A stretch of DNA of 64,000 nucleotides from an uncultured Eubacteriales bacterium. Lineage in GTDB: Bacteria; Bacillota; Clostridia; Christensenellales; Aristaeellaceae. This document shows, piece by piece, positions 3,744-40,814 of the stretch. Under the pieces are notes generated by a model. It was given only the letters and a program-made list of their open reading frames with translations, searched no databases and was not told where the DNA came from. The position numbers and the translations under genes are program-made. Location of the stretch: the NCBI GenBank assembly GCA_900320085.1, contig ONRC01000005.1, forward strand, positions 35,735 to 99,734. Direction: 5' to 3'. Every line of letters starts with the position of its first letter. The stretch's first letter is position 1.

Positions 3744-3745
3744 GT

Positions 3746-4425
3746 CACGACGGAGCGAGGGCCTATGCGGCCCTCGTGCACCTGCACCAGGAGATTTCTC
3801 ACGGGGCTGCCGCCCGGCCTACGCTGAGAATGATCCACTGGATCATTCTCCGGGCGCTTCAGCCCTCCTGGACCTCAATAGCGGAAACTACATGAATTGT
3901 AAAATCTGCTTGGTTCCCGCTGATACAGGGAAGAACGCGGAAGTCTGGCTTAGTGCCGTTGTGCTTCTGACCCGGCGGATGAATCGCCGATGACCGCCTG
4001 TGGCGGGAATTTCATCGGCGATGAAATCAGGCGAAACGAGCAATGTCCGCATGAAGCGGACTTGCGACGGCCTGCGGGGAACGCCGCCAGCCCGGATGCT
4101 TTGCATCCGGGGAAAGCCAGGGAAGAATCCGCAGGGGAAAGTTTACTTTCCCCCTCGGATTTTCCCGGGCTTTCTTGGGTCAGAAGTCCTCATCCTTTTC
4201 GTAACCCCAGCGCGACAGGCGGAGCTTGGCTGCTTTTCCCAACTACGTTATTTCGCCAAATGCGGGTCCAGGGACGAAGCACGGACAGCCGCCTGTGGCG
4301 GATGTTCTGTCCGTGCTGAGATCAGCCGAAACGAGCAATCTCGCCATGAAGGCGAGTTGCGACGATTGAGGCTGCGGATACTCAGGACCCTGGTTGGGGT
4401 CTGGGGCGAACAGCTGCGTGTTTTA
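3746..4425 (+). repeat. Family-A modular intergenic element, copy 1 (longest; carries modules M1, M2 twice, M3)
   Basis: Collinear sequence identity with 20941-21530 (+) and 31781-32055 (-). Starts 3 nt after the cca stop codon. Dense nested hairpins and no coding-like ORF. Confidence 0.85.
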
Positions 4426-4442
4426 AAGTGTCCAATCAATCA

Positions 4443-8404: not shown

Positions 8405-8520
8405 CGTGCATCCGCTGGGGGCGCCGTCCGCAAAGATGGCTGAGACAGAACCCTTGGAACCTGTGTAGATCATCCTACCGTAGGGAAGCGGCGCGCGGCC
8501 TGAAAAGGCCTGCGTTTTAT
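8405..8520 (+). promoter_or_regulatory. TPP (THI-box) riboswitch with terminator-type expression platform
   Basis: CCGCUGGGGGCGCC...GGCUGAGACAGAACCCUUGGAACCUG...CUACCGUAGGGAAGCGG matches the THI-element conserved core (GGGG.GC, CUGAGA, ACCCUU.GAACCUG, GUAGGGAA). It is followed by GCGCGGCC-UGAAAA-GGCCUGCG-UUUU. The downstream gene is a ThiT-type transporter. Confidence 0.88.
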
Positions 8521-18615: not shown

Positions 18616-18633
18616 CAAATACCCTTTTATACC

Positions 18634-18760
18634 TTTCTCGGAAGGGGGTCTGGGGGAAACCATCTTTGGGGCCGAAGCGCCCGGGAAACCTGCCCTTGGG
18701 CTGGTTTTCAGCGGAGGCCGGGCCGGAAGGCCCCGGACAGCAAAGAGCGGTTTCCCCCAG
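18634..18760 (+). repeat. Family-C palindromic element, copy C2
   Basis: TTTCTCGGAAGGGGGTCTGGGGGAAACC...CAAAGAGCGGTTTCCCCCAG, ending 10 nt downstream of the gyrB stop codon. Confidence 0.8.
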
Positions 18761-20779: not shown

Positions 20780-20940
20780 TCAAACAAATAATATTTCACC
20801 TGCTTATTATACCACAAAACCGGGAAAAATGGAAGGGTTCCTTCTTATATAATGGCATTTTCCCATGGAGAAAAAAGAGGGATTTTGACCGGTTATACCA
20901 TGATCATGCTATGAACTTTTAAAATACTGACAGGCGTGTT

Positions 20941-21530
20941 GCAAAGGGAGACGACGAGGCGAGGGCCTGTGCGGCCCTCGTGCACCTGCACCAGGAGATT
21001 TCTCACGGGGCTGCCGCCCGGCCTACGCTGACAATGATCCACTGGATCATTGTCCGGGCGCTTCGGCCCTCCTGGACCTCAATAGCGGAAACTGTTTGAA
21101 TGATAAAGTCAGCTTGGTTCCCGCAGAAGCGGGGAGGAACGCGGAAGTCTGGCTTGGCGCCGTGGCGCTTCTGGCCCGGCGGCAAAGCCGCCAGCCCGGA
21201 TGCTTTGCATCCGGGGAAAGCCAGGGAATCAACCGCAGGGGTAAGTTCACTTTCCCCTGCGGTTGATTCCCTGGCTTTCTTGGGCCAGAAGCCCTCAAAC
21301 TATCCGTTACCCCAGCGCACCAGGCGGAGCTTGTTTGCTTACCTCAAATCCGTTATTTCGCCAGTTGCGGGTCCAGGGCAGTCACCGCCCTGGCGCAGGA
21401 CGAACCGCCGATGACCGCCTGTGGCGGAATTCTCATCGGCGGTGAGATCAGCCGAAACAAGCAATGTCCGTAGGACTTGCGCCGATTGAGGCTGCGGAAC
21501 TGGGGGGCGCGCAGCCCCCAGCGTTCCCTT
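20941..21530 (+). repeat. Family-A modular intergenic element, copy 2 (carries M1, M3, one M2)
   Basis: Near-identical to copy 1 over 20941-21180 and collinear thereafter. Lies between the gyrB upstream region and the mscL 3' end, antisense to both neighbours. Confidence 0.85.
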
Positions 21531-21647
21531 TGGTCAGTTTTGAACATCGTCCATGAAAGTACGACTGTTAAAAGGAAAACAGCAGAACAGAAAAAAGCGG
21601 CGGAATATTTCATCCGTCGCTTTATGAAAATCGGATTCAAACGCGGT

Positions 21648-29172: not shown

Positions 29173-29262
29173 GTTATCCCTCTTTCATCGAGATGGTAAA
29201 AAAGAAATCTGTTTGGAAGCAACAATATCGGATCGTTATAATAATGCTGTACCCTTTATGGA

Positions 29263-29323
29263 TTTCTCGGAAGGGGGCCAGGGGGAAACCGCTCTTTGGC
29301 CTACAAAGAGCGGTTTCCCCCAG
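29263..29323 (+). repeat. Family-C palindromic element, minimal copy C3
   Basis: TTTCTCGGAAGGGGGCCA then GGGGGAAACCGCTCTTTG-GCCTA-CAAAGAGCGGTTTCCCCC, a perfect 18-bp stem. Confidence 0.85.
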
Positions 29324-31707: not shown

Positions 31708-31780
31708 TCAGGAAAAAACGGGTCTTTCAGCGGGTATGCTGTTCCCAAGGATAAATCGTCCATCCAGCAAGAAGGAAACA

Positions 31781-32055
31781 CTGGGGTTTCACCCCAGACC
31801 CCACCAGGGTCCTGAGGACCCTGGACCCACAACTGGCGAATTATCCTGGTTGGGTAAAGCAGGCAAGCTCCGCCTGGTGCGCTGGGCCAGAAGCACAACG
31901 GCATCAAGTCAAACTTCCGCATTTCTCCATGCCTTTACGGGAACCAAGCTGATTCACCAGACCAAGCTATTTCCGCTATTGGAGTCCAGAGGATGAAATC
32001 CTTTGGTGCAGGGGTACGGGGCCGCATAGGCCCCTGCCTCGTCGTAACCCTTTGC
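31781..32055 (-). repeat. Family-A element, copy 3 (minimal 275-nt core without M1/M2/M3 modules)
   Basis: The reverse complement aligns end to end with the conserved blocks of copies 1 and 2. Begins 72 nt after the ABC ATPase stop and ends upstream of the NahK-like promoter. Confidence 0.85.
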
Positions 32056-32127
32056 AGCATCAATAATGTAGAAAAGAATACCAACAAACGCAAAAATGTG
32101 GAGCCGCATGGGCCCCACACTTTTGCT

Positions 32128-40577: not shown

Positions 40578-40647
40578 GATTACTTCCTCCATTTTTGCAA
40601 ACAGTCATAAAAAACGAGTCATTTGTTTTTACTTTCCCCCTTTCGCC

Positions 40648-40814
40648 TTTCTCGGAAGGGGGTCTGGGGGAACCGCTCTTAGCCTTCCCCCCGCAGGGGG
40701 GCCGCAGCGCCCGGAAAATGATCCAGTGGATCATTTTCAGCGTAGGCCGGGCGGCAGCCCCGGATGGTGGCCCGCAGGGCCGGATGAGGTTATCCAAAGA
40801 GCGGTTTCCCCCAG
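40648..40814 (+). repeat. Family-C element, copy C4, expanded by nested insertion of module M1 (inverted) and a GGATGAGG module
   Basis: TTTCTCGGAAGGGGGTCTGGGGGAACCGCTCTTAG ... 40707-40762 equals the reverse complement of the M1 block found in family A ... CCAAAGAGCGGTTTCCCCCAG. Confidence 0.85.

Follow-up and report, generated by a model that had tools for sequence, protein, structure and literature searches.

M2, a folded module nested in the intergenic repeats of uncultured rumen Clostridia, is a candidate small non-autonomous insertion element

The window, by which we mean the whole 64,000-nucleotide stretch of DNA that was analysed, contains three copies of a dispersed, intergenic, pseudo-palindromic repeat of 300–690 nt, referred to here as the host. 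Two of these copies enclose smaller modules, M1 and M2. M1 is a portable hairpin module (GGGGCTGCCGCCCGGCCTACGCTGA-hairpin-CCGGGCGCTTCAGCCC) that lies in the loop of host hairpin 2. A second repeat, X, is a hairpin repeat unrelated to the host and consists of a perfect hairpin of ~20 bp (CTGGGGGAAACCGCTCTTTG...) followed by CCCCCTTCCGAGAAAGG. The features are located in the window as follows.

3744..4433, + strand: host copy A, ~690 nt, carrying M1 and the M2 copies a1 and a2 (aligned with copy B)
20928..21570, + strand: host copy B, ~640 nt, carrying M1 and the M2 copy b
~31762..32060, - strand: host copy C, a minimal form lacking M1, the central hairpins and M2 (from blastn and direct reading)
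3803..3865, + strand: M1 in host copy A
21007-21069: the same module in host copy B
3977..4080, + strand: M2 a1, 107.3 bits with covariance model R1
4272..4380, + strand: M2 a2, 121.2 bits with covariance model R1
21398..21500, + strand: M2 b, 118 bits with covariance model R1
18632..18760, - strand: repeat X
29261-29323 and 40634-40813, - strand: the other window copies of repeat X, all three copies being without M2

Host copy A lies between the stop codon of a CCA-adding enzyme gene and a convergent ylmH-like gene, and copy B between the region upstream of gyrB and the end of mscL. The two copies are ~90% identical, except for insertions and deletions of whole modules. The host has terminal inverted repeats, its 5′ arm being an inverted copy of its 3′ arm, and it resembles a miniature inverted-repeat transposable element (MITE). 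Folding energies of the host alignment were equal for both strands. One genome scan detected 11 host copies in "uncultured Clostridiales RUG14706" and 2 in RUG14052, so that at least 11 copies are present in one metagenome-assembled genome. Across the loci L014–L029 and the window, the host shows a conserved non-palindromic core (GCTTGGTTCCCG...GCGGAAGT...CAGGCGGAG), together with the mirrored arms and a terminator-like 3′ hairpin. No model match was obtained for an RNase P-like or raiA-like identity of the host, with the raiA-hairpin model reaching 15 bits against a threshold of 43.7. The sole Rfam match in the window was a TPP riboswitch aptamer at 8407-8503 (+), with 61.1 bits (gathering score, 54.3).

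Other repeats accompany the host. The copies of repeat X are situated directly 3′ of stop codons and just before the ribosome-binding site of the next gene, like a REP- or terminator-type repeat. In locus L017 (1870-2045), an element with the ends ATACTAAACTCAA/TTGAGTTTAGTAT lies inside a host hairpin loop and occurs again at ~2470-2600 downstream; the family of this element is termed Y, and M2 was found within Y in five metagenome loci. At the host A locus of L126 (3265-3410), there is a palindrome of ~150 nt made up of AGGAGGTAGGAAGT-like units and flanked by the direct repeat ATCAAT; this locus seems to attract palindromic insertions preferentially.

M2 is a self-contained unit of ~103–109 nt with a GC content of ~60%, and its three copies in the window all lie on the + strand. 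Copy a1 takes the place of the CGAA loop in the host central hairpin (GGCGG-CGAA-GCCGCC). Copy a2 is located at the tip of the host 3′ hairpin (CCAGGG...CCCTGG), with the element proper extending over ~4274-4378 (ACGAA...GCGGA), and copy b occupies the site GCGCAGG^, which separates the host 3′ hairpin from the terminator-like one. Both of the latter sites were also found empty: L014 and host copy C have the plain hairpin CCAGGGTCC-TCA-GGACCCTGG at the a2 site, and L019 and L020 have CCCTGGCGCAGGTCTGGGGG at the b site. The 20-nt pattern GATCAGSCGAAACRAGCAAT, which represents a conserved joint, matches the window three times, namely at the M2 copies, where 0.03 matches are expected. The folding energy of each copy was well below that of shuffled controls, both as RNA (z = -3.7 to -5.4) and as DNA (z = -4.5 to -7.2). 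Nine further assemblies of the window's species share the exact sequence of b, and no differences in the presence or absence of M2 were found among the strains of that species.

The M2 fold, modelled over 107 positions, has five helices with 31 pairs in all and is organized in two domains, given below for a2.

4279..4316, + strand: domain 1, a long bulged hairpin
4279-4288 with 4307-4316, + strand: outer stem of domain 1
4289-4301, + strand: invariant apical hairpin CCGCC-TGT-GGCGG of domain 1
4302-4306, + strand: variable 5-nt bulge of domain 1
4323..4374, + strand: domain 2, a long-range helix enclosing purine-rich internal loops and the distal hairpin
4323-4327 with 4370-4374, + strand: long-range helix of domain 2
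4335-4338 with 4357-4360, + strand: GCAA/TTGC pairing of domain 2
4340-4356, + strand: distal hairpin of domain 2

Among the window copies, the outer stem reads CGCCGATGA/TCATCGGCG in two and GCACGGACAG/CTGTCCGTGC in one, the long-range helix reads CAGCC/GGCTG twice and CAGGC/GCCTG once, and the distal hairpin occurs in three variants, while the invariant CCGCC-TGT-GGCGG hairpin is accompanied by a bulge of 5–6 nt. Approximately 45 unpaired, purine-rich bases are nearly constant, and purines make up 67% of the unpaired segments when M2 is read on the strand shown. The original prediction had described three copies sharing an outer stem, the CCGCC-TGT-GGCGG hairpin, a long-range helix, a distal hairpin and the joints between them. 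All three copies and each of these elements were confirmed, and the covariance model corrects the starts, which had been placed 7–8 nt short at the 5′ end. The segments between the helices are conserved as described, with the exception of a1, whose internal loop has lost 5 nt (ATTGA) on its 3′ strand. Only the window shows this deletion; in L105, L106 and L080 the same copy is complete.

Two further observations concern the sequence of M2. Alignment columns 49–52 hold a GATC site in 50 of 55 copies. In addition, the conserved host sequence CGCACCAGGCGG (21316-21327) is complementary to the invariant M2 sequence CCGCCTGTGGCG (21415-21426), with seven perfect pairs (CAGGCGG/CCGCCTG), which could be an alternative pairing or a chance occurrence in GC-rich sequence.

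A scan of metagenomes with the pattern CCGCCTGTGGCGG-N(22-34)-AAACNAGCAAT retrieved 75 M2 loci. The organism of the window is an uncultured Clostridia bacterium represented by metagenome assemblies, their rumen origin being judged by record names alone. We aligned 56 distinct full copies and tested the structure of the original prediction with one extra pair added. Standard pairs occupied 98.7% of 1,723 helix cells, and 16 of the 31 pairs had changed on both sides (173 cells). None of 500 shuffles reached any of five pairing measures, and sliding the 3′ partners by 1–3 columns as a control reduced pairing to 31–48% of cells. Both-sided changes affected 9 of the 10 pairs of the outer stem, and perfectly paired variants numbered 15 for the outer stem (all Watson–Crick), 8 for the long-range helix and 10 for the distal hairpin. 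These three helices are free of the constraint imposed by the search pattern; the invariance of the apical hairpin and of part of the joint, in contrast, follows from what the pattern demanded.

The covariance model yielded 90 strong matches (69–132 bits) in 486 kb of fetched loci and nothing weaker. Only 2 of the 90 lie outside the pattern selection, and both retain the apical hairpin. The extra pair, C61–G93, is replaced by A–T in one copy that was not picked by the pattern. Columns 62 and 91 covary in every case (G-A in 25 copies, A-C in 26 and G-T in 4), although the variable distal hairpin lies between them. The larger alignment still covaries; with the compensated variants of the three helices and nearly invariant joints, M2 stands as a folded nucleic acid whose pairing is kept as its sequence changes, as had been proposed. 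The original prediction had also named recombination between pre-existing palindromes as a way in which the differences might have arisen without selection for pairing. Recombination between copies does occur, since L035, L048 and L067 contain chimeras formed from two M2 copies in one host, with mismatches in the long-range helix. As a full explanation it fails, the compensated variants being too many for two pre-existing palindromes. The M2 fold is real and under constraint.

Searches of known families and collections did not assign M2. Neither M2 nor the host matched Rfam 15 at the gathering score or at E-values up to 10, and Rfam searches of 16 related loci gave no M2 or host match. In viral contigs, the M2 pattern had two matches only, both chance ones in coding DNA, and the host pattern had none; plasmid and phage collections gave no match. 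Literature searches turned up no prior description, the papers retrieved being general accounts of REP and BOX repeats. Several candidate identities were considered and rejected: a hammerhead-like core, as a2 has GACAG where a1 and b have GATGA; a kink-turn in the internal loop, for which the sequence does not fit; an integron attC site, for which the box sequences are wrong; and an IS607-type GG crossover, which the junctions do not fit.

At least six sequence contexts of M2 were found, involving the host, repeat X, repeat Y and unique sites.

Tip of the host 3′ hairpin: ~25 copies, forward relative to the carrier
Host pre-terminator site, between the 3′ hairpin and the terminator-like hairpin: ~15 copies, forward relative to the carrier
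Host central hairpin: 5 copies, forward relative to the carrier
Two hairpins of the host 5′ arm: ~10 copies, reversed relative to the carrier
GGGG^TCTGGGG junction of repeat X: 13 copies, in one orientation
Repeat (MITE) Y, with inverted-repeat ends: 5 copies, in one orientation
Unique sites: several copies

Every M2 copy has GG on its left flank, and its usual place is a hairpin tip. It either replaces a few loop bases at such a tip or is slotted between two hairpins. In repeat X, the junction is clean, falling between the G and the T of GGGGG^TCTGGGGG (L093 compared with the window copies of X), and there is no target duplication. At the a1 site, where the CGAA loop has been replaced, GAA stands at both junctions. 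The ends of M2 (ACGAAC... and ...TGCGGA) are not inverted repeats. The two host 3′ sites are occupied independently, with none, either or both filled. Since the host arms are mirrored, a reversed M2 in the 5′ arm is oriented to its arm in the same way as a forward M2 in the 3′ arm, and it is the local target sequence that sets the orientation of M2, irrespective of which way the carrier runs. The variety of contexts, the reversed copies in the host 5′ arm and the presence or absence of M2 as a unit speak against the initial idea of M2 as a sub-module belonging to a single larger functional RNA. M2 variants at the host 3′ hairpin track host subfamilies (r = 0.48), which indicates that much of the spread took place with the carrier and not by M2 itself.

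M2 can itself carry an insert. Its distal loop holds a further module in L090 (930-1060), L097, L101 and L104, which reads AGCGYCGARCG...CTGAGGACG-hairpin-CGTCCGAAACCC...GGGGCGT and has the short motifs GAACGAAG, TGAG, AGCAAT and GAAAC in common with M2. At a unique site in L100 (2861-2990), the 3′ end of M2 reads GCGGAGG and is followed, at a distance of 9 nt, by the ATG of an ORF (MARFVPKDKLSKK...), so that M2 provides a sequence resembling a ribosome-binding site there.

The same loci were fetched from relatives by means of their flanking proteins. L128 carries host copy A at the same locus with few base differences, and a plain GGCGGCGAAGCCGCC hairpin replaces a1, which is present at that site in the window, L105, L106 and L080. 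As the central hairpin is plain in nearly all other host copies, a gain of a1 is the simpler reading. In L128, copy a2 is half deleted, its 3′ end having gone in a deletion of ~55 nt. M2 is gained or lost as one block. The carriers are insertions as well: host A is absent at the same locus in L130–L133 and L126, host B is absent in the close relative L120, where the mscL–gyrB spacer measures only 228 nt, and an M1-like module of ~66 nt, found in the loop of repeat X at 18672-18740 (-), is polymorphic, with L122 (2326-2345) having a 4-nt loop, GAAC, in its place. At both of these same-locus module polymorphisms (a1, and the M1-like module in X), the loop bases were replaced, not split, a pattern equally compatible with gene conversion in which another carrier copy with the module in place was the donor.

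On balance, we favour, with some reservation, the view that M2 represents a new family of small non-autonomous insertion elements that depend on their structure, and that it is one of several intergenic repeats nested in each other in uncultured rumen Clostridia. Among small non-autonomous insertion elements, it is best filed as a structurally unusual variant. The fold and its constant joints would then serve as a recognition surface for a copying or inserting machinery acting on a single strand, most likely of DNA, perhaps in the way that IS200/IS605-type ends or REP sequences are bound by HUH transposases. An inserted M2 would survive only where the insertion spares the hairpins of its carrier, and a resident copy would spread on with the carriers and through recombination between carrier copies. 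Spread at the level of the carrier is suggested by the three chimeras formed within one host and by the M2 variants that track host subfamilies. A further-reaching version, of which we are doubtful, would unite M2, M1 and the module in the M2 loop in a new class of structured mobile elements that insert recursively at hairpin tips after GG and are moved either through an RNA intermediate or by a recombinase acting on single-stranded DNA, with the joints as a recognition or catalytic fold.

Some observations speak against mobility. M2 has neither terminal inverted repeats nor a clear target duplication, and no turnover was seen among the strains of the window's species. The reversed copies in the inverted host arm could be explained by duplication or conversion of the arm and not by insertion of M2. 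Searches by tblastn with three query proteins (IS200, IS608 and a REP-associated tyrosine transposase, RAYT) against a small sample, 697 kb of repeat-broken contigs, detected no transposase.

Comparison with known systems places M2 close to several of them. Non-autonomous elements derived from IS200/IS605, the palindrome-associated transposable elements, have neither terminal inverted repeats nor target duplications. Like them, M2 lacks inverted ends and has hairpins just inside both ends. They insert 3′ of a short fixed target in one orientation, with a preference for DNA able to be single-stranded, and M2 likewise has GG before every copy and an orientation that is constant for each class of site, the mirrored arms included. 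In contrast to these elements, the two hairpins of M2 are only loosely alike (CCGCCTGTGGCGG versus, for example, TCCGCTGTGCGGA), and M2 keeps an extra long-range helix. The pairing of a guide with the cleavage site was not seen in M2, where the IS608 rule of hairpin-foot bases pairing with the cleavage site, judged by eye, did not fit.

REP sequences, BIMEs and REPINs are moved by REP-associated tyrosine transposases and share with M2 the combination of short extragenic palindromic repeats into mosaics, as well as compensated stems, recognition of hairpins, a location at gene ends and the insertion of other elements (PMC2817692). A REP unit, however, is a single imperfect palindrome of 20–40 nt with a conserved 5′ tetranucleotide of the GTAG type, and M2, with ~105 nt, three helices and long constant joints, falls outside this definition. 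A further difference from both the REP and the IS200 systems is that no REP-associated or Y1 transposase was found for M2 in the 697 kb of sampled DNA. The pneumococcal BOX (boxA-boxB(n)-boxC) and SPRITE repeats are, like the M2 set, modular intergenic repeats of Firmicutes, in which a sub-module may be absent or multiple without upsetting the rest of the predicted fold; terminator-like repeats and slow present-day turnover are further points of likeness (PMC3049150). There is no sequence relation to BOX, whose boxB modules are in tandem whereas M2 is nested in hairpin loops, and the long invariant internal loops of M2 have not been reported for BOX (PMC3049150). With classical MITEs, M2 shares its small size (~105 nt), its non-coding and multicopy nature (90 copies), strong pairing, presence or absence between relatives (a1 being absent in L128) and nested insertions; it differs from them in having neither terminal inverted repeats nor clear target duplications and in being GC-rich. 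The host, which does have terminal inverted repeats, suits the class of classical MITEs better than M2.

It is also conceivable, although we consider it unlikely, that M2 is a functional RNA domain that binds a protein or a ligand or makes tertiary contacts, is transcribed within the host and other untranslated regions and is moved by recombination, the reversed copies being passengers of arm duplication. Compensated stems joined to invariant purine-rich joints agree with such a domain, and the high purine content of the unpaired bases and the non-Watson–Crick covariation of columns 62 and 91, being more typical of RNA, lean towards it. In the central and 3′ parts of the host, M2 always lies in the sense of the terminator-like hairpin, and the upstream gene runs in the same direction as M2 in 18 of 29 cases, by crude gene calls. 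A convergent downstream gene, found by equally crude calls in 32 of 43 cases, reflects the placement of the carrier and not M2 itself. Because the host 5′ arm is an inverted 3′ arm, the reversed copies can be accounted for without insertion of M2 as such; these copies, however, score as high with the covariance model as forward ones and are equally intact, which speaks against a single RNA sense. Both strands of M2 fold alike, as RNA and as DNA, which also speaks against it; the slightly lower folding energy of the forward strand in 46 of 56 copies leans towards RNA. Against RNA, the pairs are almost purely Watson–Crick, and among ~1,700 cells G:T and A:C combinations occurred 11 times each, so that there is no excess of G:U over A:C. 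Likewise, the M2 copies in repeat X would be antisense to transcripts reading the window's X copies, the conserved loop of a1 has suffered its 5-nt deletion in the window and a2 is half deleted in L128; no promoter is evident, and Rfam has no match. As the covariation comes from a portable, wobble-free unit present in either orientation, it identifies by itself neither the molecule nor the strand, and the data are compatible with the folded strand being RNA or single-stranded DNA.

The replaced loop bases at both polymorphic sites, the chimeras of two copies within one host, the tracking of host subfamilies and the almost exclusively Watson–Crick pairs, symmetric between strands, are also what would be expected if M2 had neither a function nor mobility machinery of its own and were a palindromic block spread among homologous repeats by gene conversion, its pairing kept not by selection but by template switching within the hairpin during replication. 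We regard this as improbable: gene conversion cannot put M2 into unrelated carriers (X, Y and unique sites) or into five host positions, and template switching leaves unexplained both the constant GG at the left junction and the near-invariant joints beside stems that have diverged into 15 variants. Many small ribozymes are repeat-associated and multicopy, as M2 is, and its compact fold of several helices, with GAAAC and UGAGAU in the conserved joints, would suit a small self-cleaving ribozyme or a part of an RNA-mediated retroelement. This origin is nevertheless very improbable, given that no ribozyme family of Rfam matched at E-values up to 10, that the hammerhead arrangement CUGANGA...GAAA is absent and that the gene tables show no reverse transcriptase in the vicinity.

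Covariation as strong as that of M2 is normally taken as proof of a functional RNA, and its occurrence in a portable unit calls for caution in RNA discovery. Repeats of this kind also break metagenome assemblies, and many of the contigs studied here end inside them. If the RNA reading were true, M2 would be an undescribed, portable RNA domain. If M2 is mobile, these rumen Clostridia would carry layered repeats that insert into each other's hairpin loops, and an as yet uncharacterised enzyme with a specificity for folded single strands would be implied.
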